A stretch of 64,000 nucleotides of DNA from assembly GCA_963754085.1 (NCBI GenBank), contig CAVWFA010000016.1:451213-515212 (forward strand). Reading direction: 5' to 3'. The stretch's first letter is position 1. Each line of letters starts with the position of its first letter. The position numbers and the translations under genes were made by a program. Shown here in pieces: positions 3,533 to 59,018 of the stretch. Under the pieces are notes generated by a model that searched no databases, had not been told where the DNA came from, and was given only the letters and a program-made list of their open reading frames with translations. The DNA comes from Candidatus Aminicenantes bacterium (lineage in GTDB: Bacteria; Acidobacteriota; Aminicenantia; Aminicenantales; Saccharicenantaceae).

Positions 3533-3542
3533 CGGGCCCGCC

Positions 3543-4876: not shown

Positions 4877-4901
4877 GAAGAGACGATCGAGACGGAAAAG
4901 G

Positions 4902-4919
4902 GTCAGCGCCGGGGCTGAC
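4902..4919. terminator. hairpin between convergent genes (possible bidirectional terminator)
   Basis: GTCAGC-gccggg-GCTGAC lies between the gmhA stop (4876) and the convergent stop at 4922. No clear U-tract. Confidence 0.3.
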
Positions 4920-4921
4920 GC

Positions 4922-5545: not shown

Positions 5546-5611
5546 GATGGATCGGATCCTATTATCTCTCGCCCCCCCGCCGTCTGTCAAACGCGGCGGG
5601 GGGGGCGGTCG

Positions 5612-9316: not shown

Positions 9317-9340
9317 GGCATATCCCCTTTTCTTGGGGTC

Positions 9341-9895: not shown

Positions 9896-9905
9896 GGGAC
9901 TCTCC

Positions 9906-11006: not shown

Positions 11007-11019
11007 GGTTCGCGCTCCT

Positions 11020-11457: not shown

Positions 11458-11458
11458 C

Positions 11459-12007
11459 TCAGGAGCTCTTTCTCCGGGCATATTGGATCGATCCGCCCAT
11501 GTAGAGGCTCAGGACCCGCTCGTCCATGACATCGGGCTGATCGGGCCGGTCGAGCTTGGGATTCTGCAGAACGATGGAATTCAGGTTGGCGGCGAAATTG
11601 GCCACGGTGCCCATGGGGGAGAAGACGGCCGTGGGGTCTCCCCCGTCGAGGGGCAGGGAAAGGGTCAGGTTAAAGCTCTCGGGAATGTCCTTGGGCGGCG
11701 TGGGTCGGGCCTTGGTCCAAGTCCCGTCGGCCTCGAGCTGCTCCATGTCATAGGCCCAGTAGGTCCCGCTGGGCTGATAGAAGCGCACGCGGTGCGGGAT
11801 CTTGGTGCTGACCGCCCGGTTCTTGGTCATCTGGAGGAACGTCTGGATCTCGCGGGTCTTGTTCTCGAGGTTCCTCTCCGCCATGACATTGAGGACGCTC
11901 GGGATCGAAACGAGCATGAAGATGGCCATGATGCCGATGACGACGAGGACCTCGATCAAGGTGAAGCCCGCGGCGGCCCGGCGCGTCGAAGAAGGGAGGG
12001 ATTTCAT
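11459..12007 (-). CDS. FimT/GspH-like type IV minor pilin
   Basis: Start taken at MKSLPSSTRRAAAG|FTLIEVLVVIGIMAIFMLV, residue 59 of track ORF 11459..12181. GGAAGGA lies upstream. Confidence 0.7.
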   Translation of the reverse strand: MKSLPSSTRRAAAGFTLIEVLVVIGIMAIFMLVSIPSVLNVMAERNLENKTREIQTFLQMTKNRAVSTKIPHRVRFYQPSGTYWAYDMEQLEADGTWTKARPTPPKDIPESFNLTLSLPLDGGDPTAVFSPMGTVANFAANLNSIVLQNPKLDRPDQPDVMDERVLSLYMGGSIQYARRKSS

Positions 12008-12043
12008 AGGCGGGTCCTTCCGTCCATCCTGATTTTCTTCTTC

Positions 12044-12072
12044 CTTATAGAACAATAGTTGGGCCATTTCAA
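12044..12072 (-). promoter_or_regulatory. putative sigma-70 promoter of the minor-pilin operon
   Basis: Minus strand reads TTGAAA-N17-TATAAG, 36 nt upstream of the ATG at 12007. Confidence 0.4.
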
Positions 12073-12211
12073 GGCGGCTCCTCAGGCCATTCCGCCACGG
12101 TGCATTATCCGGCGCCGCCCCCGCCGAGGCAATCATCGCAACTGGTGATTGGACGGGTGATTTTGCGAGGAGGAGCCTCACCCCGAACGGCTAGCCCGGC
12201 GGGCGGCGGCT

Positions 12212-14560: not shown

Positions 14561-14591
14561 GGTTCACCTGCCTCGACGCCCGGCCGGGCGC

Positions 14592-16001: not shown

Positions 16002-16103
16002 AGCGACCTCCTCAAGAGGACTCCCCGTCGGGCGGGGGAAAGATCGAAAAAAAGACCTCACCGACTTTGCGTGACGGGCCTTTTTTCCGGGTTCTGAGCC
16101 TAG

Positions 16104-16133
16104 ATTCTATTGATACAGAGGGAAGGATGTCAA
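16104..16133 (-). promoter_or_regulatory. putative sigma-70 promoter for the flotillin gene
   Basis: Minus strand reads TTGACA-N18-TAGAAT. The -35 overlaps the rph stop codon. Confidence 0.3.
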
Positions 16134-16921
16134 GCCGGGCCCTTGTCGGCGGGTCCGGGCTTCTCTCTGTAGCCGTAGGCCATGAAGAGGATGCTCTTCT
16201 TCTTGAGGGTGTCCTTCTGGACCTTGACGATCCGGGCGATGCCCCGGTCGGCCAGCTTGAGCAGGCCGAGCAGCTCCTTGCGCGAGAAGGGGCTCTTCTC
16301 CGCTCCGGCCTGGACCTCGACGAGCTCGCCCCGGTCGGTCTGGATGACGTTCATGTCCAGATCGGCCTGGGAATCCTCCGAATAGTCCAGGTCGAGGAGG
16401 ACCCGGCCCTTGACGATGCCCACGCTCACGCCGGCGACGAGGTGGCGGAGGGGCATGTGGTCGATGAGGCCGCGGTCGATCATCTTCTTGAGGGCCAGGC
16501 CGAGCGCGACGCAGCCGGCCGTGACCGAGGCCGCCCGGGTCCCGCCGTCGGCCTGGATGACATCGCAGTCGATGATGATCTGCCGCTCACCCAGGGCCTT
16601 CAGGTCGGTCACGGCCCGGAGGGCGCGGCCGACCAGGCGCTGGATCTCCTGGGTCCGGCCCGAGACGCGGCCGGTCCCCCGCTCGCGGGGGGTCCGCTCT
16701 TCGGTCGCCCGGGGCAGCATGGCGTACTCGGCCGTGACCCAGCCGCGGCCGGTGCCCTTGAGGAACGGCGGCACGCGCTCGTCGATGGTCGCCGCGGCCA
16801 GGACGCGCGTCCGGCCCATCTCGATCAGGGCGGACCCGTCGGCGAAATCGAGCGTGTCGATGCTGATCTTGACCGGCCGGAGCTGGCCCGGCGAGCGCTT
16901 GCCGGAGCGGACGGGATCCAC
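16130..16921 (-). CDS. rph: ribonuclease PH
   Basis: 263 aa with GSALIEMGRTRVLAAAT, VTAEYAMLPRATEERTPRE, RTQEIQRLVGRALR and CDVIQADGGTRAASVTAG. Confidence 0.9.
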   Translation of the reverse strand: MDPVRSGKRSPGQLRPVKISIDTLDFADGSALIEMGRTRVLAAATIDERVPPFLKGTGRGWVTAEYAMLPRATEERTPRERGTGRVSGRTQEIQRLVGRALRAVTDLKALGERQIIIDCDVIQADGGTRAASVTAGCVALGLALKKMIDRGLIDHMPLRHLVAGVSVGIVKGRVLLDLDYSEDSQADLDMNVIQTDRGELVEVQAGAEKSPFSRKELLGLLKLADRGIARIVKVQKDTLKKKSILFMAYGYREKPGPADKGPA

Positions 16922-17574
16922 TACTTGATCCAGATGGACGGGGTTTTATCTTTTTTTGACTGGGCCATGAAGTCCGCGAGGTCCTTCTGCGCATTGGCCG
17001 ATTCCGCTTCGGCCTTGAGCAGCTTGTCGTAGGTGTCGCTGATCTGGAGTTGGATCACCTCGCGGGATTTCACGTTGTCGAGCCCGTAGAATTGCTGGTA
17101 CAGGGTGTTCATCTTGTTCGTCAGCAGATCGACCATCTCGGCCTTCTGCTGGGCGAGGTCGGCGAGCTCGCTCTGCCTCTTCTGAATATCCTGCGCGGAC
17201 ATGGCCGGGGGCTCGCTTGGCGGGATGTCTTCGACGGGCTTATCGGCCCCGGCGGCGGCCTGGGCGGCTTGATCGCCGGCCGCCGGAGGAGCCCCTTCCT
17301 GTTGCGCCCCCGCCGCGGAGCTATCCGGCGGGGCCCCGCCGGCCTCGGCGGCGACCTCTTCGGCAGCCTGTTCCTGGGTGGCGGTCTCGACGGCCGGGCG
17401 CTTTTTCACCTTGGCCAGGTCGGCCGTCGTGATCACCGTCGCCGGCTTGCCCTTGAGCGCGGCCCGCCGTTCCTTCTCTTTCTTGGCCAGCTCGGCCAGG
17501 CTCTGGGACTGGAGGAAGGAGACCAGGAGGAGAGGCAGAACGAGGACCGCCAGCCATCTTGTCTTGCTCATCAA
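16921..17574 (-). CDS. secreted coiled-coil protein, hypothetical (paralog of 4922..5545)
   Basis: 217 aa. A signal peptide is followed by QSLAELAKKEKERRAALKGKPATVITTADLAKVKKRPAVE. The C-terminus has MVDLLTNKMNTLYQQ. It lies between comEC and rph. Confidence 0.6.
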   Translation of the reverse strand: MMSKTRWLAVLVLPLLLVSFLQSQSLAELAKKEKERRAALKGKPATVITTADLAKVKKRPAVETATQEQAAEEVAAEAGGAPPDSSAAGAQQEGAPPAAGDQAAQAAAGADKPVEDIPPSEPPAMSAQDIQKRQSELADLAQQKAEMVDLLTNKMNTLYQQFYGLDNVKSREVIQLQISDTYDKLLKAEAESANAQKDLADFMAQSKKDKTPSIWIK

Positions 17575-32968: not shown

Positions 32969-34549
32969 ATGGAGCATGACGAGCGGAAGACCCGGTTGAT
33001 CCGGTCCACGGCCGCGGTCGCCGGGCCGACGCTGGTCAGCCGGGTCCTCGGCTACGTCCGCGACCTCCTTCAGGCCTATTATCTCGGCACCGGCACGAGC
33101 GCCGACGCTTTCATCATCGCCTACACCATTCCCAATTTGTTCCGCCGCCTGACAGGCGAGGGGGCCATGACCCCGGCCTTCGTCCCGGCGTTCACGGAGC
33201 TCAAGGGCGGGCCGGACAGGCAGCGGTTGTGGCGCTTCGGCAATGTCTTCTTCTGGGACCTGGCCCTGGTCATGGCCGTCACGACAGCCGTGGGCATCTT
33301 CTTCGCGCCGGGCCTGGTCAAGGTCATCGCCTACGGCTTCGGCGATGTCGCCGGGAAATGGGGCCTGACCATCTTCATGACCAGGGTCATGTTCCCGTAC
33401 CTGTTCTTCATCAGCCTGGCCGCCCTGGCGAGCGGCATCCTGAACTCCTTCGGCCGCTTCTTCATCCCGGCCTCGACCCCCATCCTGTTCAACATCGTCA
33501 TCATCGCCGCCGTGGCCGGCTGGGCCCGGGACGCCCGCGAGCCGGCCCTCGTCTTCGCCGCCGCCGTCGTCATCGGCGGCATCCTCCAGCTCGCCCTCCA
33601 GGTCCCGTTCCTGTGGAAGGAGGGGATGCGCTTCACCTTCGGCTTCTCCTTCCGCGATTCGACGGTCCGGCGGGTCGGGCGGCTCATGGTGCCCGGGATC
33701 TTCGGATCGAGCGTCTACCTGATCAACTTCGCCCTGAGCCGGATGATCGCCTCCGGCCTCGAAGAGGGGAGCGCCTCGGCGCTTTACTATGCGTCCCGCA
33801 TCGAAGAGCTGACCTTGGGGCTCTTCTCGATCGCCCTGGCCGCGGCCCTCCTCCCGGCCTTTTCCGAGCACGTCGCCGCGCGCGATATCGGCGAGCTGAA
33901 GAAGACCCTCGGCTTCTCGCTCAAGCTCACGGCCGTCGTCAGCTTCCCGGCCGCGGCCGGGCTCATGGCCATCAACGCGCCGATCATGCGCACGCTCTTC
34001 GAGCGCGGCCAGTTCGGCCAGGGGTCGACGGCGGTCTCGGCGTCCTGCCTGCTCTTCTTCGCGCTCGGCCTGCCCTTCGTTTCGGGGGTCAAGGTCGTCG
34101 CGCCCGCGTTCTTCTCCCTCAAGGATACCCGGACGCCCGTGGCCATCGGCATCGTCGTCGTGTTCGTGAACATCGCCGGGGCCCTCCTGCTCATGGGCTC
34201 TCTCCGGGTCAGCGGCCTGGCCCTGGCCTTGTCGCTGTCGCAAGCGCTCAACTTCGTTCTCCTCCTCGTCTGGCTCGGGCGCAAGATCGGGCCTCTCGAC
34301 ACGGCCCGCTGGGCGGTCCCGGCGCTGAAGGCCGCGGCGGCCGCGGCCCTGATGGGCGCGGCCCTCCGCCTGGCCTGGCCCCTTCTCCGCGTCGATGGGG
34401 CGGCCTTCGTCGTCCGGGCGGCCGCTCTGGCCGGCGCCATCCTCGCGGGCATCATCATCTATATCCTCCTGCTCAGGCTCGTCAGCCCGGCCGACTTGAA
34501 GAGCGTCGTCGGGCATCTGCGCCGGGCGGCCTCCAAGGAGAGCCCATGA
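32969..34549 (+). CDS. murJ: lipid II flippase MurJ
   Basis: 526 aa with [44 protein letters not shown]. Polytopic. Confidence 0.9.
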
Positions 34550-35013
34550 AGATCGTGCTGCAGCGGGTGAAAGAGGCCCGGGTCGAGGTCGAGGGCGTGA
34601 CGGCCGGCCGTATCGGCCGCGGCCTGTGCCTGCTCGTCGGCGTCGAGAAGGGCGACGGGGAGGCGGACGCGGAATACCTGGCCCGCAAGTGCGTCGAGCT
34701 GCGCATCTTCCCGGACGCCGAGGGCAAGATGAACCTCTCGCTGGCCGAGGCCGGCGGCGAGGTGCTGGCCGTGTCCCAATTCACGCTGGCCGGCTCGGTG
34801 CGCAAGGGCCGCCGGCCGAGCTTCGACGGCGCCGAGGCGCCGGCCCGGGCGGCCGAGCTGTTCGAGTCCTTCGTCGGCGCCGTCGAGGCGCTCGGCGTGA
34901 CCGTCGAGACGGGCGTCTTCCAGGCCCTCATGGAGGTCCACCTCGTCAACGACGGGCCGGTGACCTTCGTCCTCGGATCGAGGCCCGGGGCGGGCGGTCG
35001 GGACGAGGGGTGA
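34546..35013 (+). CDS. dtd: D-aminoacyl-tRNA deacylase
   Basis: [15 protein letters not shown]...SQFTLAG...RRPSF...NDGPVTF. It has an ATGA overlap with murJ. Confidence 0.9.
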
Positions 35014-35166: not shown

Positions 35167-37149
35167 ATGCCCATGAGCCGCTTCATCGCCAGACGGAAGG
35201 TCGAGAGCCTGCCCCGGATCCCTCTGCGCGGGACGATCGACCTGACCTACCGGTGCGGCAACGACTGCCGCCACTGTTGGCTTCGGCTCGCGCCGGATGC
35301 GGCCGAGCGCGCGGCCGAGCTGACGTCCGGCGAGATCCGCCGCGTCGTCGACGAGGCCCGGAAGCGGGGCTGCCGGGAATGGGCCATCTCCGGCGGCGAA
35401 CCCATGCTCCGCCCGGACTTCGCCGAGGTCTTTTCGGGGATCATCGAAAAGTCCTTCCGGTATACGCTGAACACGAACGGCACCCTGATCACCCCGGCCA
35501 TCGCCCGCCTGCTGAGGCGGCCGGGCGCCAAGCTCGTCGCGCTCTACGGCGCCACCTCAGCGGTCCACGACGCGGTCACGCGCCAGCCGGGCTCGTTCGC
35601 GGCCCTCGAGCGGGGCGTTGCCTATCTCCGGGAAGCGGGGGCGGCTTTCACGGTCCAGGTCGTTCCCATGCGGACCAACATCGCCGATTACGAAGCCATG
35701 GTCCGTCTGGCGGGATCGTGGAGCCCGAGCTGGCGGGTGGGCGCCACCTGGCTCTATCTCTCGGCCTCCGGCGACCCGCGGCGCAACCGCGATATCCGGG
35801 CCGAGCGCCTGGACCCGGCCCGGGTGGCCGAGCTCGATCAGGTCTTTGCCGGAGGCGCCGGCGATCCGGACAGGGACGCCGCGATCGCGTGCGCCGCCGC
35901 GCGCGCCGTGACCGAAGGGCTCTATGCGGCCTGCCTGGCCGGCCGGCGCGATTTCCACATCGATCCGTACGGCGGCCTGAGCTTCTGCTCGTTCGTCAAA
36001 GACCCCGCCCTGCGCCTCGACTTGAGATCGATGAGCTTCGCCGAGGCTTGGGAAGAGCGCCTGCCGCGGCTGGCGGAGGCCGTCAGGCCGTCCGCGGCCT
36101 ACGGCGACGGATGCGGGACCTGCGACCTGAGGGCCGACTGCAAGTGGTGCCCGGTCTACGCCTATCTCGAGCACCGGGACCACTCGGCGAAGATCGAGGG
36201 GCTCTGCGCGATCGCCCGGGAAACGCGCCGGGCCCGGACGGAATGGCTCGGCGCGCACCGCCGCCGCTTCGGCATCGCCGGCCTCGCGGTCGACGTCGAG
36301 TCCGACCTGCCGATCACCGACGGGACGTTCGACCCCAAGTTCGAGCCCTTTCGGGTCCCGGCCGACGGGCCGGCCGATATCGTCCTCCGCCATCACTTCT
36401 CCCTGCCCGACCTCGACGCCTTCGACCTGGGCCGGGAGGTCTACCGCCGGGCGCCCTGGGCGATCTTCCGCAAAGACTCGTCCTGGATCTACGTCATGAT
36501 CTCCCCCGATCCGTCCGACGCGACGGTCCACCGCGTCATGGTCTTCGACGACGGGCACACCCGGGGCCGCATCTACAGCCCGTCGGACGGCTTCTTCCGA
36601 TCCGGCGGCCTCGATTCGCTGGCTCTGCTGCCCTCGGACCAGCTCGTCCTGGCCCGGGCCCTGCCGGCCTTCGGCGGCCTCTATGTGCATGCGGCGGGGG
36701 TGGACATGGGCGGGCACGGCCTCGTGTTCGCGGGCCCGTCGGAAGCCGGCAAATCGACCATGGTCAAGCTCATCGGGGACCGGGGCCGGGTCCTCTGCGA
36801 CGACCGGGTCATCGTCCGCAAGAGCGCCGGGGGGGTCCGCGTCCACGGGACCTGGAACCACGGCGAGATCCCGCGCGTGTCGCCGGCTTCGGCGCCCGTG
36901 CGCGCGGTCTTCTTCCTTCGACAGGCGAAGACGAACCGCCTCGACCGCGTCGAGGATCCCCGGGCCGTGCTGGCCGATCTCCTGCCCCGCCTGGTCCGGC
37001 CGCTGGTCTCGTCCGACTGGTGGGAGCGGGCCCTGGCCCTGGCCGCCGAGATCGTCCGCGACGTGCCGTTCTACGACCTGTCCTTCGACCGGAGCGGGGA
37101 CATCGTCCGCGTCCTCGAGGAATTCCTGGGCCAGGCGGACGGGCCATGA
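35167..37149 (+). CDS. radical SAM/SPASM peptide-maturase-like enzyme fused to a C-terminal HPr-kinase-related P-loop domain
   Basis: 660 aa. The radical SAM motif is CGNDCRHC, followed by SGGEPMLRPD. The SPASM Cys cluster is CGTCDLRADCKWCPVYAYLE. From about residue 380 the sequence reads YVHAAGVDMGGHGLVFAGPSEAGKSTMVKLIGDRGRVLCDDRVIV (P-loop at nt 36733-36759). Confidence 0.85.
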   Translation: MPMSRFIARRKVESLPRIPLRGTIDLTYRCGNDCRHCWLRLAPDAAERAAELTSGEIRRVVDEARKRGCREWAISGGEPMLRPDFAEVFSGIIEKSFRYTLNTNGTLITPAIARLLRRPGAKLVALYGATSAVHDAVTRQPGSFAALERGVAYLREAGAAFTVQVVPMRTNIADYEAMVRLAGSWSPSWRVGATWLYLSASGDPRRNRDIRAERLDPARVAELDQVFAGGAGDPDRDAAIACAAARAVTEGLYAACLAGRRDFHIDPYGGLSFCSFVKDPALRLDLRSMSFAEAWEERLPRLAEAVRPSAAYGDGCGTCDLRADCKWCPVYAYLEHRDHSAKIEGLCAIARETRRARTEWLGAHRRRFGIAGLAVDVESDLPITDGTFDPKFEPFRVPADGPADIVLRHHFSLPDLDAFDLGREVYRRAPWAIFRKDSSWIYVMISPDPSDATVHRVMVFDDGHTRGRIYSPSDGFFRSGGLDSLALLPSDQLVLARALPAFGGLYVHAAGVDMGGHGLVFAGPSEAGKSTMVKLIGDRGRVLCDDRVIVRKSAGGVRVHGTWNHGEIPRVSPASAPVRAVFFLRQAKTNRLDRVEDPRAVLADLLPRLVRPLVSSDWWERALALAAEIVRDVPFYDLSFDRSGDIVRVLEEFLGQADGP

Positions 37150-38324
37150 CCGCCAAGAGCTTCGTCCGGAAGGTCCCCTCGGGGACGTCCGGCCTGTGGC
37201 GCACGGCGGCCCCGAAGCTCGCCCGGCTGGACATCGAGCTGACCGAACGGTGCAACTGCGCCTGCCTGCACTGTTCGGTCGCCCGGCCGGCCGGAGATGC
37301 CGAGGCCAAGGCCCGGGAGTGGCCCGCGGAACGGTGGACGGCCCTCCTCGACGAGGCCGCCGGACTGGGCTGTCTCGTCGTCCGGCTGACCGGCGGCGAA
37401 CCGCTTCTGCGGAGCGACTTCGAGGAGATCTACCTCCACGCGCGAAAGCTCGGCTTGAGGGTGATGCTCTTCACCAACGCCACGCTCGTCACGCCGCGCC
37501 TGGCCCGCCTCCTCAGGGACGTCCCGCCGCTCGAGGCGGTCGAGATCTCGATCTACGGGATGACCCGGGAGTCGGGCGAGGCCGTGACGCGCGCTCCGGG
37601 CTCGTTCGCGGCCGCGCGCCGCGGGCTCGGTCTTCTGGCCGAGAGCGGCGTCCCCTTCGTCGTCAAGGGCGCCGTCCTGCCGCCGACGCGCGGCGAGGCG
37701 GACGAATTCGAAGCCTGGGCGGCCGGTCTCTCCGGAAACGCCGGCCCCGCCGCGTTCGCCGTGCTGTTCGACCTCCACTCGCGGCGCGACGCGGCGCGGA
37801 GCGCGGTCATCGCCGGATTGCGGTCCGGCGGCGACGAGTTCGTGCGCTTCTCCCGGCGTCACGGCGACGAAGCCGTCGGCGAATGGGGGGAATTCTGCGG
37901 CCGCCCCGGCGGGGCCCGCGGCGACCGTCTCTTCATCTGCCTGCCGGCGGCCGCCTCGGCCTCGGTCGATCCGTACGGCCGTCTGCAGTATTGCCTGGGC
38001 CTCCGCCATCCGGCGGCCCTCTACGACCTGGCCGCGGGATCGCTCCGCGAGGCCGTGACGGAGTTCCTGCCGCGGCTCCGGGAGACCCGGGCCGCGGACC
38101 CGGCCTATCTCGAACGCTGCGCCCGGTGCTTCCTCAGGGGCCTCTGCGCGCAATGCCCGGCGAAGTCGTGGGCCGAGCACGGGACCCTCGACTCGCCGGT
38201 CGAATACTTCTGCGGCGTCGCTCACGCCCAGGCGGTCGCCGCCGGCCTTCTGAAACCGGGGGAGAAGGCCTGGACCGTCCGCGACGGGGCCGAACGGGCG
38301 AAAATAAGGAGGAACGGATCATGA
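37146..38324 (+). CDS. radical SAM/SPASM domain protein (second)
   Basis: 392 aa with an ATGA overlap with the previous gene. Motifs are CNCACLHC, TGGEPLLRSD and CARCFLRGLCAQCPAKSWAEHG. It is part of track ORF 35253..38324. Confidence 0.85.
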   Translation: MTAKSFVRKVPSGTSGLWRTAAPKLARLDIELTERCNCACLHCSVARPAGDAEAKAREWPAERWTALLDEAAGLGCLVVRLTGGEPLLRSDFEEIYLHARKLGLRVMLFTNATLVTPRLARLLRDVPPLEAVEISIYGMTRESGEAVTRAPGSFAAARRGLGLLAESGVPFVVKGAVLPPTRGEADEFEAWAAGLSGNAGPAAFAVLFDLHSRRDAARSAVIAGLRSGGDEFVRFSRRHGDEAVGEWGEFCGRPGGARGDRLFICLPAAASASVDPYGRLQYCLGLRHPAALYDLAAGSLREAVTEFLPRLRETRAADPAYLERCARCFLRGLCAQCPAKSWAEHGTLDSPVEYFCGVAHAQAVAAGLLKPGEKAWTVRDGAERAKIRRNGS

Positions 38325-38626
38325 CGGGAAAGATCGAACTGGGCCGGGCCTACCGCCCTTCCGACGATGTCGTCGTGCGGGAGATCGAGGGCGAGATCGT
38401 CATCGTGCCCCTGACCTCCGGCATCGGGGACCTCGAGGACGAGCTGCTGACCCTCAACGAGACGGGGCGCGCGATCTGGGCGCGCCTCGACGGCTCGCGG
38501 CCGCTGGCCGCGGTCGTCGCGGAGCTCGAGTCGGAATACGAGGACGCGGAGGGGGAAGTCCCGGTCGACGTCGTCGGCTTCATGCAGGAGCTCTATGACC
38601 GGCGGATGATCGTGGAGAAGAGCTGA
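38321..38626 (+). CDS. PqqD-family peptide chaperone (RiPP recognition element)
   Basis: 101 aa with an ATGA overlap. YRPSDDVVVREIEGEIVIVPL...LLTLNETGRAIWARLDGSRPLAAVVAELESEY...DVVGFMQELYDRRMIV. Confidence 0.8.
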   Translation: MTGKIELGRAYRPSDDVVVREIEGEIVIVPLTSGIGDLEDELLTLNETGRAIWARLDGSRPLAAVVAELESEYEDAEGEVPVDVVGFMQELYDRRMIVEKS

Positions 38627-38631
38627 AGAGC

Positions 38632-39129
38632 ATGGACAAGCCGGCCGGCGCGCGCGTCGTTCCCGGAGGGGAGATCGCCCTCGACGGGAACGATCTCGCG
38701 GGCTTGATGCGGGCGGTCCTCGAAAAGGGGAGGGCCTTCCGCTTCGAAGCCCGGGGGGCGAGCATGCACCCGGTCATCCGCGACGGGGACATCGTCACCG
38801 TCCGGCCCCTGGCCGGCCGCGGAACGAGGACGGGCGACGTCGTCGCTTTCGTCCATCCCGTCACGGGCGGGGTCCGGATCCACCGGGTCGTCGGGGCCGG
38901 CGAGACGGGCTACCTGCTCAAGGGCGATAACGCCCTCTGCGAGGACGGCGCCGTCGCTCGGGACGCCGTGCTGGGGCGGGTCGCGCGGATCGAGCGCGAG
39001 GGGCGGACCGTCCTCCTCGGACCGGCCCTCCGCTCCTCTCTCATCGCCCGGCTGTCGAGGACCGCCTGGTTCACCCGTCTCGCCCGGCGCCTCCGCCGGA
39101 CGCTCGGCCGCAGCGACAGGAGGACATGA
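38632..39129 (+). CDS. S26-family (Sec11/SipW-like) signal-peptidase-type serine protease
   Basis: 165 aa. The Ser motif is GASMHPVIRDGDIVTV and the Lys motif is YLLKGDNALCEDG. The C-terminal tail is basic and amphipathic. Confidence 0.7.
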   Translation: MDKPAGARVVPGGEIALDGNDLAGLMRAVLEKGRAFRFEARGASMHPVIRDGDIVTVRPLAGRGTRTGDVVAFVHPVTGGVRIHRVVGAGETGYLLKGDNALCEDGAVARDAVLGRVARIEREGRTVLLGPALRSSLIARLSRTAWFTRLARRLRRTLGRSDRRT

Positions 39130-39130
39130 G

Positions 39131-40258
39131 ATGGCCAAGGGATTCGTCGTCCGGCGGCCGCTTCCCGAGTTCGGCCTGTGGGAGAAGATGGCGGACGGCC
39201 GGGCCGTCTTCAGCTTCGACCTCGAAGCGACGGCCCGCTGCAACCTCGATTGCCGGCATTGCTACATCAACCGGCCGGCCGGCGACCGGGCGGCCCGGAA
39301 GCGCGAGCTCGGCGTCGACGAGATCGGCCGCATCGGCGCCGAGGCGGCGGCGCTGGGCGCCGTCTGGTGCCTCCTCACCGGCGGCGAGCCGCTTCTCCGG
39401 CCGGACTTCTTCGATCTCTACCAGGCCCTGCTCAGCAAGGGGCTGCTCATCTCCCTCTTCACCAACGCCACGCTCGTCAGCGACGAGCACGTCCGGTTCT
39501 TCAGGAAGTTCCCGCCGCGGGACATCGAGGTGACCGTCTACGGGGTGACCCGGGAGACCTACGAGCGGGTGACGCGCACGCCCGGGTCCTTCGACGCCTT
39601 CATGCGGGGGCTCGACCGGCTCCTCGCCGGGGGCATCACCGTCCGGCTCAAGGCCATGGCTTTGCGCTCGAACAAACACGAGCTCCCGGCCATCGGGGAT
39701 TTCTGCCGGGCCCGGACCAAGGACTACTACCGTTTCGACCCCCAGCTGCATCTCCGCTTCGACCGCGACGAGTCCCGGAACACCCTGATCCGGGCCGAGC
39801 GGCTCAGCCCCCGGGAGGTCGTCCGGCTGGAGCGGGCCGATCCCGAGCGCTTCGGGGCCCTGGAGGCCGCCTGCGACGAGATCCTTCCGGCCCCGGCCGC
39901 CGAAGGGGCGGGCGTCCCCGTATGCCGCCACATCTTCCGCTGCGGCGTCGGTCAGAGGAGCTTCGTCGTCGGGCCCGAGGGCCATCTGCGGCCGTGCCTG
40001 TCGCTGAGCCATCCGGATTTCCTCTACGACCTCAGGAAAGGCAGTCTGGCCGGCGCCTGGACCGGATTCCTGCCGAAGGTGCTGCGGCGGGAGTCCGACA
40101 GGCGGGAATACCTGGAGAAGTGCGGGCGGTGCCCGATCGTCAACTTGTGCCTCTGGTGCCCGGCCCACGCCTATCTGGAGACCGGGGAGCTCGATCTGCC
40201 GGTCGAGGACTTCTGCCGGGTGGCGGAAGCCCGGGCGGAGGGCCTAAAATCCGGTTGA
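39131..40258 (+). CDS. radical SAM/SPASM domain protein (third)
   Basis: 375 aa, starting 1 nt after the peptidase stop. Motifs are CNLDCRHC, TGGEPLLRPD and CGRCPIVNLCLWCPAHAYLE. Confidence 0.85.
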   Translation: MAKGFVVRRPLPEFGLWEKMADGRAVFSFDLEATARCNLDCRHCYINRPAGDRAARKRELGVDEIGRIGAEAAALGAVWCLLTGGEPLLRPDFFDLYQALLSKGLLISLFTNATLVSDEHVRFFRKFPPRDIEVTVYGVTRETYERVTRTPGSFDAFMRGLDRLLAGGITVRLKAMALRSNKHELPAIGDFCRARTKDYYRFDPQLHLRFDRDESRNTLIRAERLSPREVVRLERADPERFGALEAACDEILPAPAAEGAGVPVCRHIFRCGVGQRSFVVGPEGHLRPCLSLSHPDFLYDLRKGSLAGAWTGFLPKVLRRESDRREYLEKCGRCPIVNLCLWCPAHAYLETGELDLPVEDFCRVAEARAEGLKSG

Positions 40259-40283
40259 CTTTGCCGTTCGTTCGACTTAATAT
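40255..40283 (+). promoter_or_regulatory. putative sigma-70 promoter dedicated to the small Cys-rich ORF
   Basis: TTGACT-N17-TAATAT. The -35 overlaps the stop of the third rSAM gene. This is an AT-rich island in otherwise GC-rich DNA. GGAGGA lies 10 nt before the ATG at 40319. Confidence 0.55.
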
Positions 40284-40318
40284 ATTGTTAAGGAAGCGTT
40301 TATGGAGGATCTGAGGCC

Positions 40319-40501
40319 ATGAAAAAGAAGTGGCGAACGCCCGAGCTCATCGTTCTCTTCAAGGGGCGTCCGGAGGAGACCCTGCTGTGCCATTGCAAGC
40401 ACACGACGGCCCCGCCCGTGGCGCCCTATAACCACAAGGACAACTGCACGTCGAACCCCGTCTGTTGTTCGGCGTGCGTCGATATCCAGTACGCTTCCTG
40501 A
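40319..40501 (+). CDS. candidate RiPP precursor peptide (60 aa, 6 Cys)
   Basis: MKKKWRTPELIVLFKGRPEETLLCHCKHTTAPPVAPYNHKDNCTSNPVCCSACVDIQYAS. It has a strong SD and its own promoter, and sits immediately 3' of the rSAM/PqqD/peptidase operon. Cys residues are at positions 24, 26, 43, 49, 50 and 53. Confidence 0.65.
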   Translation: MKKKWRTPELIVLFKGRPEETLLCHCKHTTAPPVAPYNHKDNCTSNPVCCSACVDIQYAS

Positions 40502-40527: not shown

Positions 40528-41043
40528 TCAGGTGATGCGGACCCCGCTCGTCTTCTCGATGGCCTCCTCGGCCGCCGCCCGGACATAGGGACTGGGGTCC
40601 TTTTTCAGCCGGACGAGGAGCCGGACGGCTTCCTCGCCGCCGATCTCGCCCAGCGCTTCCGCCGCCGCCCGCCGGACGTCGACGTTCGTGTCGCCGGCCG
40701 CCGCGCCGATCCCCGGCAGGGCTTCGCGAAGCCGCCGGAGCCCGATGACCGACAGGGCCGAGCTCCGGGCGTACCAAGGCGGCTGACGGAGGCGCCGGAC
40801 GGCCCAGTCGGCCCGCAGCGCCGGCCGCCCGCAGAGCCCCCGGACGACGAGCGCCCGGACGGCCTCGTTGGGATCGGCCAGCATCTCCCAGAGGAGCTCC
40901 TCGACCCAGGCCAGGCGGACCTTGACGCAGGCGGAGATGATCCGCTGTCTTTTTGTCTTGTCCGGGGTCAGGCCGAGCTTGAAGACAAAGGCCCGGCAAA
41001 CGGGGGAGAGGCTCGACTCGTCAGGGGGGCGGTGTTCGTCCAT
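40528..41043 (-). CDS. HEAT-repeat (PBS-lyase-like) protein
   Basis: 171 aa starting at MDEHRPPDES. Repeats include DPNEAVRALVVRGL, DTNVDVRRAAAEALGEIG and DPSPYVRAAAEEAI. It is the C-terminal part of track ORF 40528..42312. Confidence 0.6.
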   Translation of the reverse strand: MDEHRPPDESSLSPVCRAFVFKLGLTPDKTKRQRIISACVKVRLAWVEELLWEMLADPNEAVRALVVRGLCGRPALRADWAVRRLRQPPWYARSSALSVIGLRRLREALPGIGAAAGDTNVDVRRAAAEALGEIGGEEAVRLLVRLKKDPSPYVRAAAEEAIEKTSGVRIT

Positions 41044-41045
41044 CC

Positions 41046-42284
41046 TCAGACCAGGTCCAGGATGTGCCCCATCTTCTCTTTCTTGGTCTTCAGATAGCGC
41101 AAGTTGCAGGCGTTCGGCGGGACCTCGAGCGGCACGCGCTCGACGATCTCCAGGTTGTATCCGGCCAGGCCGACGAACTTCCGGGGATTGTTGGTGATGA
41201 GCCGCAGGCGGCGGACGCCGAGCGCGACCAGGATCTGGGCGCCGATGCCGTAGTCGCGATGGTCGGGCTTGAAGCCGAGCTGGCGGTTGGCTTCGACCGT
41301 GTCGGCGCCCTCGTCCTGCATGGCGTAGGCGCGGATCTTGTTGGCCAGGCCGATGCCCCGGCCTTCGTGGTTCAGGATGTAGAGGACGACGCCCCGTCCC
41401 TCCTTCTCGATCATCTCCATGGACAGCCGGAGCTGCTCGCCGCAGTCGCAGCGGGCCGAGCCGAAGGTGTCGCCGGTCAGGCACTGCGAGTGGGCCCGGA
41501 CGAGGGCCGGCTCGCCGCCGCCGACGTCGCCCTTGACCAGAGCGACGTGGTGATCGCCCCGGATCGTGTCCTCGTAGACGTGGATCCGGAAGTGGCCGTG
41601 CGAGGTCGGCAGGTCCGTCTCCTCGAGCTTGCGGACGTGCGTCTCGTGGTGCATGCGGTAACGGATGAGCTCCGCGATGGTCAGGATGGGGATGTCGAAG
41701 CGCCGGCTGATCTCCTCGAGCTGGGGCATGCGGGCCATGGAGCCGTCCTCGTTCATGACCTCGCAGATGACGCCGGCCGGCGTCAGGCCGGCCAGGCGGG
41801 CCAGGTCGACGGCGGCCTCGGTCTGTCCCGCCCGGCACAGGACTCCGCCTTCGACGGCCTGCAACGGAAAGACGTGACCCGGGCGGGCCAGGTCGTCCGG
41901 CTTCGTGGCCGGGTCGACCGCGGCCAGGATGGTCCGGGCCCGGTCGTGGGCCGAGATGCCGGTCGCCACGTCCTTCTTGGCGTCGATGGAAACGGTGAAG
42001 GCCGTCTGGAAGCGGGCCGTGTTCTCGCTGACCATGAGGGGGAGGTGGAGCTCGTCGAGCCGCTCCCGGGTGAGGGGCAGACAGATGAGCCCGCGGCCGT
42101 GGCGGGCCATGAAGTTGACGATCTCGGGGGTGACCTTTTCGGCGGCCACCATGAGATCGCCCTCGTTCTCGCGGTCCTCGTCGTCGACGATGACGATCAT
42201 CCGTCCGGCCCGGACGGCGTCCAGGGCCTGTTCGACGGGAACGGTCTTCTGTGCTTCGGTCATGGGAGCGATCGGGACAGCCAA
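41046..42284 (-). CDS. ribBA: bifunctional 3,4-dihydroxy-2-butanone-4-phosphate synthase / GTP cyclohydrolase II
   Basis: 412 aa with [14 protein letters not shown], then the C-terminal CDCGEQL and GRGIGLANK. Confidence 0.95.
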
Positions 42285-42850
42285 TTATACAGGTATTTTC
42301 CGACCATGTCACACTCGAGGTTGACGCTCGCGCCGGGGCGCAGGGCGCCCAGGTTCGTCGCGGCGAGCGTCGTCGGGATGAGCTCGACTTCGAAAGAGGA
42401 CGGGCCGAGCGAGGCGATGGTCAGGCTGGCGCCGTCGACGGCGACCGACCCCTTGGGCACGAAGAACAAGCGAAGAGCGGCCGGGAAGGAGATGCCCAGC
42501 CTCTTTCCGGCCGGCCGCGAGGACGACCGGACGACCTTGCCGACGGCGTCGACGTGGCCGCTGACGAGGTGCCCGCCGAGCGGAGCGGCCAGGGTCAGGG
42601 GCAGCTCGAGGTTCAGCCGGTCGCCGGGCTTGAGCGCGCCGAGGGTCGTTTTGGCCAGGGTCTCGCGGGACAGATCGAACCGGAGGGCGTCCCGGTCCGC
42701 GCCCGTGAGCGTGAGGCAGACCCCGTTGACGGCGACGCTGTCGCCGGCCGCGAGCTTGCCCGCGAGCCCGGGGGCCTCGACGGCCAGCTCCGAGCGGCCT
42801 TTGCGGTAGCCGCGGAAGCGGCCTTGGTGGGAGATGATGCCGGTGAACAT
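42260..42850 (-). CDS. ribE: riboflavin synthase
   Basis: [12 protein letters not shown]...[12 protein letters not shown]...[11 protein letters not shown] (duplicated lumazine-binding repeat). It has an ATGA overlap with ribD. Confidence 0.9.
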
Positions 42851-43950
42851 CAGAAATATCCTTCCACGATGATATCGCTCCCGTTCGAGAACTCGCGCGT
42901 CCTGTTGAGCCGGACGGCCCCGGCCACGGCGGCCGCGCCCGCGCCGCCGACGAAGCCCGGCGCGGCGGCGCCGCCGACCAGCAGCGGCGCGAAGGTCAGG
43001 ACGGCCTTGTCGGCGAGCCCGCCTTCGACAAAGGACGTGAACAGGCGGCTGCCGCCTTCGACGAGCAGGGCCGAGATCTCGAGCCGGCCGAGCTCGGCCA
43101 GCACGCGGTCGAGGCGCCAGACCTTCGCCCCGCCGGGAGGGAGGAGGACTTCGACCCCGAGGGCCCGGAGGGCCCCGGCCTTCTCCGCCGGCGCCTCGCG
43201 GCCGGCGAAGACGACGATCCGGCCGCGGTCGAGCGTCGTGAGCAGCCGCGCGGCCGTGGGGAAGCGAAGGGAGGGATCGAGGACCGCCCGAAGGACCTTC
43301 TTCGCCGGCCAGTTCGCGTGGCGCACGGTGAGGAGCGGATCGTCGGCGACGAGCGTTCCCGCGCCGATCATGAGCGCGTCCTGTTCGCCCCGGAGGAGGT
43401 GCACGTAGTCGCGCGTCGCGGCCGAGGTGATCCACTTCGAGTCGCCCGTGCGGCAGGCGATCTTCCCGTCGAAGGTCAGGGCCGCCTTCAGGGTGACGAA
43501 GGGGACCTTCCGGACGATGAACTTGGCATAGGCCTCGTTGACGGCGGCGTTCCTCTCCGCGAGCAGCCCCACGGAGACGTCGAGCCCCGCCTCCTCGAGC
43601 CGGCGGATGCCCTTGCCGTGGACGATGGGATTGGGGTCGGCGGCGGAGACGACGATCCGGGCCAGTCCGGCGCCGAGGACCGTGTCGACGCACGGCGGCG
43701 TCCGGCCCCAGTGGACGCACGGCTCGAGGGTCAGATAGAGCGTCGCGCCCTTGGCCCGTTTCCCGGCCATGCCCAGGGCCAGGATCTCGGCGTGGGGCTG
43801 GCCCGGCTCGGCGTGATAGCCGTGGCCGACGACCGTCCCGTCGCGGACGACGACCGCCCCCACGAGCGGATTGGGGCTCGTCCGGCCGCGGGCCTTCTCG
43901 GCCAGCCCGTAAGCCATCTCCATCCAGCCGAGATCGCGCGCCGGCGTCAT
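42850..43950 (-). CDS. ribD: bifunctional riboflavin-biosynthesis deaminase/reductase
   Basis: 366 aa with HAEILAL and TLEPCVHWGRTPPC. Confidence 0.9.
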   Translation of the reverse strand: MTPARDLGWMEMAYGLAEKARGRTSPNPLVGAVVVRDGTVVGHGYHAEPGQPHAEILALGMAGKRAKGATLYLTLEPCVHWGRTPPCVDTVLGAGLARIVVSAADPNPIVHGKGIRRLEEAGLDVSVGLLAERNAAVNEAYAKFIVRKVPFVTLKAALTFDGKIACRTGDSKWITSAATRDYVHLLRGEQDALMIGAGTLVADDPLLTVRHANWPAKKVLRAVLDPSLRFPTAARLLTTLDRGRIVVFAGREAPAEKAGALRALGVEVLLPPGGAKVWRLDRVLAELGRLEISALLVEGGSRLFTSFVEGGLADKAVLTFAPLLVGGAAAPGFVGGAGAAAVAGAVRLNRTREFSNGSDIIVEGYF

Positions 43951-57046: not shown

Positions 57047-57544
57047 GAAGGGGACGTCGTCGTCGGGGCCACCGGAGGCGCCTCCGGACTCTTCGCCCGA
57101 CGGGAACTCGTCTTCGCCGGCGGCCGCGGGCCCGCGGCCGCCGCCGCGGCCTTCCTCGGCCAGGTCCCGGGTGTCCGAGCTCGCCGAGCTCTCTTCGCGC
57201 TTGCCGAGGAGGACGATGTTCATCGCCTCGACCTCGGTCTTGTACCTCTTGTTCCCGGAATCCTTGTCTTGCCAGCTCCGCGTCCGGAGCTTGCCCTCGA
57301 TGAGGACTTGACGGCCCTGGGCGAGGTACTTCTCGACGAATTCGGCCAGCTTGCCGAAGACGACGATGTTGTGCCACTCCGTCCGGTCGGACGACTCGCG
57401 CGTGTTGGGATTGAAGAGCCGCTCGTTCGTGGCCAGGCTGAAGCTGGCTTTCCAGCGGTCCTGCTGGGGCATGCGGAACATCTCGGGCTTCTGGCCCAAG
57501 CGTCCGACGAGGATGACCTTGTTCAGGCTGTTGATGTCTCTCAT
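57044..57544 (-). CDS. ssb: single-stranded DNA-binding protein
   Basis: MRDINSLNKVILVGRLGQKPE...WHNIVVFGKLAEF..., with the acidic tail DDDVPF. It has an ATGA overlap with cpoB. Confidence 0.9.
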   Translation of the reverse strand: MRDINSLNKVILVGRLGQKPEMFRMPQQDRWKASFSLATNERLFNPNTRESSDRTEWHNIVVFGKLAEFVEKYLAQGRQVLIEGKLRTRSWQDKDSGNKRYKTEVEAMNIVLLGKREESSASSDTRDLAEEGRGGGRGPAAAGEDEFPSGEESGGASGGPDDDVPF

Positions 57545-58401
57545 TTTTCGTTCAGCTCCCGGATCTTGTCCTGGGCGATGCGGGCCTCCTCCTCGAGCGG
57601 GTATTTCGCGACGAGGAGCTTGAGCGCGGCCAGCGCCTCCGGCTTCCGGCCGAGCTCGATGAAGCTCAGGCCTTTCTTGAGATGGGCCGCCGCGGCCTTG
57701 TCGCCCTGCGGATAGCCGACGATGAGCTCGTCGAAGGCGTCGATCGCCTCCTCGAACTTCCGCTGGCTGTAGCGGCACTCGCCGATCCAGTACAGGGCGT
57801 TGTCGGCCAGGGGGCTCTCCGGGAACTGCTGGCGGTAGAGCTTGAAGCTTTCGACGGCCAGGTCGTAGTTCCCCTTGAGATAATCGTTGTAGGCCACGGA
57901 GTAGGCTTCCTGGGGGGACATCGTCGGAGCCGGGGCCGGGGCCGGCGGAGCCTTGGGTTCGGGCCCGGGTTTGGCCGCCGTCTGAGGGGCCGTCTTCCGG
58001 TCCTCGCCGGCGGCGGCCGCACCCGCGGCGGCCCCGACGGGCACCGCGGCCGCGGGCCGGGCGGCCAGGTCGGCCGAGATCTTCTGAAGCTCGAGCGTCA
58101 GCTGGTCGAGCTTGCGGACGATGTCCTGGTACTGGGCGGGGAGCGCTCTCGAGCCTTCCTGAGCTTCGGCCTGGCCGGCCATGGATTGACGGAAGAGGTC
58201 GGTCAGGATCTTGAGCTGGTCCTGGAGGGCCTTGATGACCTCGGCGTTCTGGTCGGCCAGGTCGCGGAGCTCCTGGACCTGCTGCTTGAGGATCTGGACG
58301 TCGTCGTAGACGACCTCGATGGCCTTCTTGCTCTTGTCCTGTCCGGCCGCGGCCAGGGCCAGGACGGCGAGCAAGAAGGCCCCGAGTCGAGCGCGTCGCA
58401 A
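57541..58401 (-). CDS. cpoB: Tol-Pal system protein CpoB/YbgF
   Basis: 286 aa with a signal peptide, a coiled coil and C-terminal TPRs (YSVAYNDYLKGNYDLAVESF..ALYWIGECRY). Confidence 0.8.
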   Translation of the reverse strand: MRRARLGAFLLAVLALAAAGQDKSKKAIEVVYDDVQILKQQVQELRDLADQNAEVIKALQDQLKILTDLFRQSMAGQAEAQEGSRALPAQYQDIVRKLDQLTLELQKISADLAARPAAAVPVGAAAGAAAAGEDRKTAPQTAAKPGPEPKAPPAPAPAPTMSPQEAYSVAYNDYLKGNYDLAVESFKLYRQQFPESPLADNALYWIGECRYSQRKFEEAIDAFDELIVGYPQGDKAAAAHLKKGLSFIELGRKPEALAALKLLVAKYPLEEEARIAQDKIRELNEK

Positions 58402-58404
58402 GTC

Positions 58405-58953
58405 TTACTTCTCGATGACGAGGAACTGGGCGCGCCGGTTCATCTGCCAGGCGCTCTCGTCGTGCCCGGGGTTGACCGGCTGGCTCTTGCCGTAGGAGAT
58501 GATCTTCATCCGGTCGCCGGCGATGCCCGACGAGAGGAGATAGTCCTGGGCGGCCTTGGCCCGCTTCTCGCCGAGGGCGAGGTTGTATTCCTCGGTGCCG
58601 CGCTCGTCGCAATGGCCTTCGAGGAGGATCTTGACGGTCTTGAACTTCTTCAGCCAGCCCGCGTTCCCGTCCAGTGTGCCCCGGGCGTCGTCGCGGATGA
58701 GGGCCTTGTCATAGTCGAAATAGACGGTCCCGAGGGGTTTTTCCCGGTTGATCTGGTCGAGCGATTTCTGGAGGAACAGTTCCTCTTCCGTCAGCTGGGG
58801 TTCCTGGACGACGGGCGGTTCGACCTTTTCGACCTTGGGCTGTTCCTGGATCTGCGGGGGCGGCGGGGGGACTTCCTTGGGTTTCTTCTTGCAGGCGACG
58901 GCGAAGGAGAAGACGAGCACGATGGCGAGGGAGTAAATGATCAGCTTTTTCAT
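58405..58953 (-). CDS. pal: peptidoglycan-associated lipoprotein Pal
   Basis: 182 aa with lipobox FAVAC and an OmpA-like C-terminus (LEGHCDERGTEEYNLALGEKRA). Confidence 0.9.
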   Translation of the reverse strand: MKKLIIYSLAIVLVFSFAVACKKKPKEVPPPPPQIQEQPKVEKVEPPVVQEPQLTEEELFLQKSLDQINREKPLGTVYFDYDKALIRDDARGTLDGNAGWLKKFKTVKILLEGHCDERGTEEYNLALGEKRAKAAQDYLLSSGIAGDRMKIISYGKSQPVNPGHDESAWQMNRRAQFLVIEK

Positions 58954-59018
58954 TGAGCCTCCTAAAAATCGCGTCTCGGGCCGAAGCGGCCGGCGGGGTG
59001 ACGCTGTTTTCCAGCCTT

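Follow-up and report, generated by a model that had tools for sequence, protein, structure and literature searches.

Here we describe a gene cassette at positions 35167-40501 of a 64,000-nucleotide stretch of a Candidatus Aminicenantes genome (contig CAVWFA010000016.1; the whole stretch is referred to here as the window) that very probably matures a small peptide encoded at its own 3' end. Six co-oriented genes on the forward strand span the cassette. They encode three radical S-adenosylmethionine (radical-SAM)/SPASM enzymes (rSAM1, rSAM2, and rSAM3), one of which, rSAM1, is fused to a kinase-like domain (ScmC), as well as a PqqD-family protein, a peptidase, and a small cysteine-rich open reading frame (ORF). 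A first-pass annotation had proposed a cassette for a ribosomally made peptide with post-translational modifications (RiPP) with the Cys-rich ORF as its precursor, and had named beforehand a neighborhood survey as the check on whether the small ORF co-occurs with the enzymes. Our survey, which took one genome per species and recovered 78 loci, all from uncultured organisms, agrees with that proposal. Homologs of the peptide adjoin the cassette in 59 of the 78 loci by phmmer and in 63 of the 78 with a profile, always on the enzyme strand, and most loci that lack a peptide homolog end early at a contig boundary. These data support the 60-aa ORF as the predicted substrate of the cassette.

The precursor gene (40319-40501) encodes 60 aa, six of which are Cys, and is the only match to its family within the window. 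Its product consists of a 25-aa leader, MKKKWRTPELIVLFKGRPEETLLCH, and a 35-aa core, CKHTTAPPVAPYNHKDNCTSNPVCCSACVDIQYAS. Across homologs the leader follows the consensus K-K-x-W-x-x-P-E-L-[IV]-[IV]-L-x-[KR]-G-x-P-E-E-x-[VL]-L, while the core retains three to four conserved Cys and an invariant Cys-Lys. The Trp and the Cys-Lys are spaced 21 aa apart in 63 of 64 peptides, and 56 of 59 have their last Cys 6-8 aa before the C-terminal end. We found that 63 of 66 peptides end in Ser; the remaining three end in Thr (L062) or Ala (L025 and L044, ORFs broken by frameshift or truncation), and a further family member beyond these 66, from the locus L076, ends in Thr. Leaders are more alike than cores (pairwise identity 0.55 vs 0.34), which is the usual RiPP signature, and the cores diverge strongly between phyla except at the Cys, the Lys, and the terminal Ser. 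The precursor has no match in NCBIfam or Pfam, and its database homologs are all annotated as hypothetical, none with a Pfam family. The possibility that the peptide is a chance ORF was rejected given this conservation.

The small ORF also appears to be transcribed separately, as the first-pass annotation had claimed. A sigma-70-type promoter, TTGACT-N17-TAATAT (40255..40283), precedes it, with the -35 box overlapping the rSAM3 stop codon. This is the sole promoter-like site in the 6.7 kb between 34.5 and 41.2 kb, where 0.2 would be expected by chance. A ribosome-binding site, GGAGGA (40304..40309), lies 9 nt ahead of the ATG, within the 60-nt spacer that separates the ORF from rSAM3. TTGAC, TAnnnT, and GGAG are shared without change by 15 of 15 aligned loci, whose spacers vary. 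An AGGAAGC element at 40290-40298, past the -10 box and ahead of the ribosome-binding site, is (nearly) invariant in 15 of 15 aligned loci and may be a signal in the 5' untranslated region. The G+C content is approximately 0.71 across the cassette, as in its flanks, and drops to 0.61 around the small ORF only.

All three enzymes match the Pfam Radical_SAM family: rSAM1 (35167..36255, residues ~1-363 of the 660-aa fusion protein encoded at 35167-37149) with an expectation value (E) of 1.9e-18, rSAM2 (37146-38324, 392 aa) with E 8e-20, and rSAM3 (39131-40258, 375 aa) with E 1e-20. In rSAM1 the CxxxCxxC motif comprises C30/C34/C37 and the SPASM Cys are residues 256, 274, 316, 319, 325, 328, and 347. 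The seven SPASM Cys have identical spacing in all three ortholog groups (C-x17-C-x41-C-x2-C-x5-C-x2-C-x18-C), a pattern that corresponds to two auxiliary clusters. Conservation of the CxxxCxxC and SPASM Cys is 94-100% in rSAM1 (68 orthologs), 97-99% in rSAM2 (73 orthologs), and 98-100% in rSAM3 (59 orthologs). The enzymes are 33-39% identical to one another, as expected of the paralogs that had been claimed, while cross-phylum orthologs of each are 45-62% identical. This suggests that the triplication is old and that every copy has been retained; rSAM3 is the most conserved enzyme of the cassette. In the locus L027, an additional paralog of rSAM3 (13379-14506; 375 aa, 458 bits) directly follows the precursor gene. 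Overall, the cassette contains the features common to radical-SAM/SPASM peptide maturases: CxxxCxxC, the seven-Cys SPASM pattern, a recognition element, and, next to these, a peptide with a leader.

The CxxxCxxC motif begins at residue 30-37 in all three enzymes, which leaves no space for an N-terminal recognition domain in any of them. Since the enzymes lack such a domain, the stand-alone PqqD-family protein (38321-38626, 101 aa) is likely the recognition element shared by all three. It had been noted as PqqD-like in the first-pass annotation and indeed matches Pfam PqqD (E 1e-13), with all NCBIfam PqqD-type models below cutoff on the window protein, and it was found in 63 loci. The peptidase (38632-39129, 165 aa), which presumably removes the leader, matches Pfam Peptidase_S24 (32 bits vs a cutoff of 23). 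In NCBIfam it remains below the cutoff for archaeal signal peptidase I (TIGR02228, 42.9 bits vs 51.85) and for the nickel superoxide dismutase (NiSOD) maturation protease (32 bits). It had been described as a Ser/Lys enzyme of the Sec11/SipW kind. Among 67 homologs, Ser44 of the G-x-S-M-x-P motif is kept in 66 of 67 and His84 in 65 of 65, and Arg85, Asp99, and Asp105 are essentially invariant, while the Lys of the 'KGDN' motif (K97) varies (Lys in 43, Arg in 10, Gln in 10). The Ser/Lys assignment is thus replaced by Ser/His, and the enzyme is probably of the Sec11/SipW kind. The sequence contains no N-terminal hydrophobic segment or membrane anchor, so the protein is predicted to be soluble, and a PDB sequence search with it gave no meaningful match.

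We considered whether the enzymes instead belong to a non-peptide pathway, such as heme/siroheme synthesis, sulfatase maturation, or molybdenum cofactor synthesis, with the small ORF as an incidental neighbor. AhbD (heme b synthase) and NirJ-type proteins do rank among the best NCBIfam matches of each enzyme, but at approximately 100 bits, where the curated cutoffs for AhbC/AhbD and NirJ are some five times as high (500-650 bits), and over the radical-SAM core only. Anaerobic sulfatase maturase is absent among the 25 best matches listed per enzyme. Such pathways would also leave unaccounted for the constant presence of a peptide-binding PqqD and of a peptidase of the leader type beside the enzymes, and a small ORF with fixed architecture in 59-63 loci and a conserved promoter. 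We therefore regard a non-peptide function as almost certainly wrong.

We compared enzyme content with core Cys content across loci. Where an rSAM1 ortholog is present, the core has at least four Cys, including a C-x2-C pair, in 61 locus/peptide pairs and exactly three Cys in 2. Where it is absent and ScmC stands alone, the core has exactly three Cys in 11 pairs and at least four in 1. The sequences compared lack phylogenetic independence, although rSAM1 is missing from at least four lineages. Loci without rSAM1 are L078, L079/L080, L081, L083, the Myxococcales loci L076/L077, and probably L074. All three exceptions are explainable: a second peptide in L082, the tandem systems of L067, and L068, in which rSAM1 is cut by the contig end. 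This co-variation points to one radical-SAM enzyme per site, with the extra Cys apparently served by rSAM1. Together with the retention of all three ortholog groups across phyla, it makes the three distinct radical-SAM modifications proposed in the first-pass annotation plausible.

The C-terminal domain of the fusion protein (36259..37149, residues ~365-660) contains GPSEAGKST, a Walker A motif, together with a CDDR motif, and had been annotated as an extra HPr-kinase-like P-loop domain. The Pfam family PF27840 ('ScmC') is precomputed on a protein 96% identical to that of the window (P0001) and on every listed homolog, and membership of the window protein is read from these homologs' matches rather than from a direct scan. 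NCBIfam scores are all sub-threshold: 55.4 bits for ScmC vs 125, 31.1 for HprK-related kinase B, 18.7 for kinase A, and 17 for hpr-ser (cutoff 240), while Hpr_kinase_C scores 14.6 bits vs 33.3. Its structure was modeled with AlphaFold (AF2) from 47 homologs, with a predicted local distance difference test score of 94.5 and a predicted template modeling score of 0.90. The best PDB matches of the whole modeled domain by Foldseek are ATP-dependent phosphoenolpyruvate carboxykinases (PEPCK; E ~1e-6), and HPr kinase/phosphorylase (1kkl, 1jb1, 1ko7, 1knx) matches the P-loop half with E 1e-6 to 1e-5 and probability 1.0. These matches agree with the annotated HPr-kinase-like fold. Residues G159, S161, G164, K165, T167, D182, and R183 are invariant, giving a Walker A motif of the form G-x-S-x-A-G-K-S-T followed by D-D-R. 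The modeled fold, the Walker A motif, and the acidic DD motif after it are those of HPr kinase/PEPCK-like P-loop phosphotransferases.

Searching 1.84 billion cluster representatives with a profile of the domain returned 490 proteins at E <=1e-30, both stand-alone (~300 aa) and fused (~650 aa). The Aminicenantes locus L082, which shares the dtd-to-rib synteny described below, encodes rSAM1 and ScmC as separate overlapping genes, and they are separate in other loci as well. That the two are fused in some loci and split in others argues that rSAM1 and ScmC probably act together. In L067 (5080-9806) and L039 (2632-5524), a stand-alone ScmC gene lies directly upstream of a fused rSAM1-ScmC gene; the stand-alone ScmC of L067 has its own rSAM2-like gene and 3-Cys peptide, and each of these loci apparently holds two tandem systems.

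In lasso-peptide clusters, homologs of HPr kinase place a phosphate on the side chain of the Ser at the precursor's C-terminus, with few other sequence needs (PMC8498205). The terminal Ser of the peptides described here, which the first-pass annotation had not noticed when it suggested phosphorylation, matches this known target, and a phosphorylation of that Ser by ScmC is plausible by analogy. Alternatively, ScmC might be an ATP-driven scaffold or chaperone for rSAM1, might phosphorylate a different residue to make it a leaving group, or might act on an enzyme, and conservation of the terminal Ser would then reflect the action of a radical-SAM enzyme at the C-terminus, like that of MftC in mycofactocin. 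In keeping with this, ScmC is only a remote relative of HPr kinase (hpr-ser 17 bits; target-normalized template modeling score ~0.5 on the catalytic half), has an extra beta-rich, PEPCK-like N-terminal half, and is physically fused to rSAM1, among whose better sub-threshold matches is MftC (93 bits vs 265). On the other side, neither the DD motif nor the Lys/Thr of Walker A varies, and the only characterized peptide-modifying HPr-kinase homologs target a C-terminal Ser (PMC8498205). A PF14907 (NTP_transf_5) nucleotidyltransferase also accompanies the cassette in relatives. It parallels the lasso peptide pseudomycoidin, in which a kinase is paired with a nucleotidyltransferase that decorates the Ser-phosphate (PMC8498205); the two nucleotidyltransferases are compared here at the level of function. 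We consider a role for ScmC other than terminal-Ser kinase to be unlikely.

Our data suggest the following mechanism, which as a whole we hold to be somewhat better than an even proposition. The 60-aa peptide would be transcribed from its own promoter, and the stand-alone PqqD would bind the conserved 25-aa leader. Each of rSAM1, rSAM2, and rSAM3 would then install one modification on the 35-aa core, most likely a Cys-derived thioether cross-link of the sactionine or ranthionine type by analogy with sactipeptides and ranthipeptides, with the fused enzyme rSAM1 acting at the C-x2-C pair near the C-terminus. The ScmC domain, with ATP, would phosphorylate the C-terminal Ser (Ser60), 6-8 residues past the last Cys, and the soluble Ser/His S26-type peptidase would cleave off the leader. 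The genes, domains, conservation, and co-variation are observed and the kinase fold is modeled, and from these we infer the chemistry, the order of the steps, and the fate of the product.

Several observations weigh against this mechanism. The Pfam SPASM model is sub-threshold on rSAM3 (19.1 bits vs a cutoff of 21.5) and has no match in rSAM1 or rSAM2, and the best sub-threshold NCBIfam matches of the enzymes are AhbD and NirJ as much as peptide maturases. The co-variation of rSAM1 with Cys content is based on few independent lineages. The Myxococcales loci (L076:6557-9818 and L077:3504-6743) are a minimal version with a stand-alone ScmC, PqqD, and a peptidase, in which the single radical-SAM enzyme is divergent and encoded on the opposite strand, and nonetheless have 3 Cys; their short peptide retains the C-x2-C pair and misfits a simple rule in which the number of enzymes equals the number of Cys minus one. 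The peptide has no evident cleavage site for the peptidase and no Ala-x-Ala. All loci were retrieved via an ScmC-containing protein, so the link between ScmC and the terminal Ser comes with no contrast set lacking ScmC. The 64-kb window, without an exporter, gives no indication of the fate of the Aminicenantes product. Finally, for every family member the mechanism is read from sequences and models, and the type of cross-link is by analogy.

We found the cassette in 78 species-level genomes from at least 10 phyla, including Aminicenantes, Anaerolineae and other Chloroflexota, Desulfobacterota, NC10, KSB1, WOR-3, Lentisphaeria, Poribacteria, Omnitrophota, and Myxococcales. The position of the peptide gene differs among these taxa: it follows rSAM3 in Aminicenantes, precedes the fusion gene in Chloroflexota, NC10, and Lentisphaeria, and lies between rSAM2 and PqqD in Desulfobacterota, where two to three tandem copies with differing cores occur. 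Tandem precursor genes (two to three with a common leader and differing cores) were seen at L042:12192-13008, L066:2788-4301, L036:8829-9312, L079:14305-15184, and L082:9270-9808; in L082 one core has four Cys and the other three. Outside Aminicenantes, the cassette is accompanied by the PF14907 nucleotidyltransferase, in 14 loci, and by an ATP-binding cassette (ABC) exporter of ~600 aa. Loci outside the main Aminicenantes clade in which PF14907 was noted, usually with this exporter, are L032, L036, L041-L043, L045, L050-L052, L062, L067, L070, L072, L074, and L079-L084. A two-enzyme version on metagenome contigs (L079/L080/L083, ~3500-17500) has a methyltransferase between rSAM2 and PqqD, a sugar-modifying/glycosyltransferase block upstream, and DUF5838, a FAD-dependent enzyme, and another divergent radical-SAM/SPASM gene downstream.

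The first-pass annotation had reported no exporter and had suggested that the product may therefore be an intracellular cofactor or signal. By tblastn, the 64-kb window contains no PF14907 match and no dedicated exporter; what similarity there is covers just the nucleotide-binding domains of two housekeeping ABC ATPases, one of which adjoins rpoN. The absence of an exporter from the window therefore stands, while the suggestion drawn from it is weakened by the ABC exporter and PF14907 of other phyla and by the variation of cores between phyla. An intracellular product, at least in Aminicenantes, such as a peptide-derived redox cofactor of the PQQ or mycofactocin kind or a metal- or redox-active cytoplasmic peptide, instead of a natural product that is secreted, would fit the position of the cassette in a stable, vertically inherited housekeeping block: the order murJ, dtd, cassette, HEAT, ribBA, ribE, ribD is kept in approximately 30 Aminicenantes loci, down to ~50% protein identity. 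Within this clade the peptide is 82-90% identical and the enzymes 72-87%, so that the peptide is conserved as much as the enzymes or more, and the combination of PqqD, radical-SAM/SPASM enzyme, small peptide, and peptidase is generally a cofactor-pathway pattern. Against such a product, several genomes encode two to three different cores, the neighborhood contains no partner oxidoreductase family, and the models for pyrroloquinoline quinone (PQQ) and mycofactocin synthesis score far below cutoff. The cassette is also not universal in the Aminicenantes class. Its distribution is patchy, and L069 keeps just a frameshifted fusion gene. We consider an intracellular product improbable, with the Aminicenantes version, which has no exporter in the window, as the case to which it may still apply.

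The locus L069 (7380-10830; Aminicenantes metagenome-assembled genome MFD05942.bin.3.643) has dtd and HEAT/ribBA flanks that enclose the fusion gene in three frame pieces of 69, 275, and 422 aa, and lacks rSAM2, PqqD, the peptidase, rSAM3, and the peptide between them. It looks like a decayed cassette remnant, or like assembly frameshifts plus a deletion.

Within the window, the packing of the cassette is exactly as had been claimed: rSAM2 shares an ATGA overlap with the fusion gene and PqqD another with rSAM2, the peptidase follows PqqD after a 5-nt gap, and rSAM3 follows the peptidase after a 1-nt gap. The gene order in the first-pass description was slightly off: rSAM2 is followed by PqqD and then the peptidase, and rSAM3 comes after these. 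The cassette is flanked by dtd (34546-35013) on one side and by a convergent HEAT-repeat/ribBA/ribE/ribD block on the other. The genes upstream (comEC, leuS, lptE, holA, rpsT, murJ, dtd) and downstream (rib genes, ftsY, recJ, lptB, rpoN) are all housekeeping genes. The rib block (40528-43950, reverse strand) reads ftsY-ribD-ribE-ribBA, then a 170-aa HEAT-repeat gene, with ribH not adjacent. An Rfam scan of the whole window matched no family, the FMN riboswitch included, and a tRNA scan of the window detected nothing. An ORF at 57535-58956 was discarded because of its odd codon-position composition, which resembles the antisense frame of a real gene. The window DNA is ~96% identical to a contig of an Aminicenantes metagenome-assembled genome from Lac Pavin sediment (L001).

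Uncharacterized radical-SAM RiPP families are common, and one more is not surprising in itself. The more specific possibility, which we offer tentatively and consider doubtful but worth stating, is that the cassette defines a new RiPP class in which three dedicated paralogs each form one Cys cross-link and ScmC is the kinase for the terminal Ser, with a possibly intracellular product in Aminicenantes. Since the Aminicenantes system is vertically inherited in a housekeeping locus without an exporter or nucleotidyltransferase, its product could have gained an intracellular role. If a new class is indeed represented here, it would provide a substrate and a function for the whole ScmC/SynChlorMet superfamily, approximately 490 clusters at 50% identity, a group so far present only as database models without a known substrate, product, or published study. 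The precursor family is now defined by a leader of fixed length, an invariant Cys-Lys, an obligatory terminal Ser, and three or four Cys according to the number of radical-SAM enzymes, and a concrete hypothesis is available for an orphan kinase-like domain. The natural series of two- and three-enzyme versions offers a means of assigning each enzyme to a site. Because the hosts are uncultured anaerobes, heterologous expression of the compact 5.3-kb cassette is a practical route to a possibly new peptide scaffold, and the cassette may also supply a set of site-specific radical-SAM cross-linking enzymes.

We compared the cassette with the systems that it most resembles. PQQ and mycofactocin pathways (PqqD/PqqE and MftB/MftC) likewise combine a stand-alone PqqD-family protein, a small peptide, a radical-SAM/SPASM enzyme, and a trimming peptidase. 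In contrast to them, the neighborhood contains no PqqA, PqqB, PqqC, MftD, MftE, or MftF, the cores are variable and Cys-rich, and the scores remain below cutoff (PqqE at most 66 vs 381 bits, MftC at most 93 vs 265, PqqD 42.4 vs 46). Sactipeptide and ranthipeptide maturases (AlbA, SkfB, CteB, PapB, and also QhpD) share the 7-Cys SPASM radical-SAM enzyme, the recognition element, and a Cys-rich leader peptide, and leaders of the 'K-K-x-[WY]-x-K-P-x-L' kind presumably resemble those of ranthipeptides. In those systems a single enzyme, in most cases one that carries its recognition domain as a fusion, makes all cross-links. The window cassette instead encodes PqqD separately, contains three dedicated paralogs, and adds a kinase-like domain and a peptidase of the S26 type. 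StsB, AlbA, and PapB give sub-threshold matches, and the AlbA, StsB, PapB, and SkfB models all score far below cutoff.

The kinases of lasso-peptide clusters (paeninodin PadeK and its relatives; pseudomycoidin) resemble the cassette in having an HPr-kinase-fold P-loop protein beside a PqqD-type protein, a precursor with an obligatory C-terminal Ser, and relatives with a nucleotidyltransferase and an ABC exporter. Unlike lasso clusters, the cassette has no lasso cyclase or B-type protease gene, and radical-SAM enzymes would build the scaffold; its kinase-like domain belongs to another subfamily, ScmC, and carries an additional N-terminal half, and phosphorylation of its peptide is a prediction. 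The peptidase shares the G-x-S-M-x-P ... H-R ... G-D-N motifs with endoplasmic reticulum and archaeal signal peptidases (Sec11, SipW) and the NiSOD protease, but differs from them in lacking a membrane anchor, in scoring below both cutoffs, and in lying within a peptide-modification operon. The models for GeoRSP (TIGR04303, 43-45 bits vs 400; TIGR04302, 21.8 vs 100) and for HPr-rel-A and HprK-related kinase B (TIGR04352 and TIGR04355, 18.7 and 31.1 bits vs 200) also score below cutoff. The failure of all named models (Scm, GeoRSP, HPr-rel-A, PQQ, mycofactocin, AlbA, StsB, PapB, SkfB, and heme) places the cassette outside the named systems. This agrees with the first-pass annotation, which named no characterized system with this exact combination; no NCBIfam model reaches its cutoff with the window proteins or with the distant loci.

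The closest named system is SynChlorMet, in which a P-loop protein of the ScmC type likewise shares one cassette with a PqqD homolog and with paralogous radical-SAM/SPASM enzymes. The first-pass annotation had called this likeness only loose. The cutoffs are indeed missed: ScmC (TIGR04249) scores 55.4 bits vs 125, ScmD (TIGR04248) 24.9 vs 100, ScmE (TIGR04250) 88.6 vs 400 with rSAM3, and ScmF (TIGR04251) 77.8 vs 400 with rSAM2. Distant loci score 60-100 bits on ScmE/ScmF, also below cutoff, and 85 diverse family representatives all fall below the ScmC cutoff (best E 2.6e-14). The likeness is nonetheless closer than had been stated, since the domain belongs to the Pfam ScmC family and its best NCBIfam match is also ScmC (SynChlorMet). 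Searches of a literature library found no paper on SynChlorMet or on a radical-SAM system with an HPr-kinase homolog, and those on Aminicenantes RiPPs and on ScmC/PF14907 found no paper on the cassette. To our knowledge, the TIGRFAM description of SynChlorMet gives no known precursor, and its reference loci are in Syntrophobacter fumaroxidans, Chlorobium limicola, and Methanocella paludicola. In contrast to SynChlorMet, which has two radical-SAM enzymes, the window cassette has three, one of them fused to ScmC, and adds an S26-type peptidase and an identifiable precursor family. Membership in the Pfam ScmC family, with every Scm equivalog missed widely, indicates by sequence comparison that the cassette stands beside SynChlorMet as a sister and does not belong to it. 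SynChlorMet-type cassettes are known computationally and are experimentally unexplored; new here are a third radical-SAM enzyme, its fusion partner arrangement with ScmC in rSAM1, a peptidase, and a precursor that can be identified. As far as sequence comparison allows, the cassette therefore appears to work like a radical-SAM/SPASM RiPP pathway with a tailoring kinase of the lasso type, its chemistry being the predicted part.

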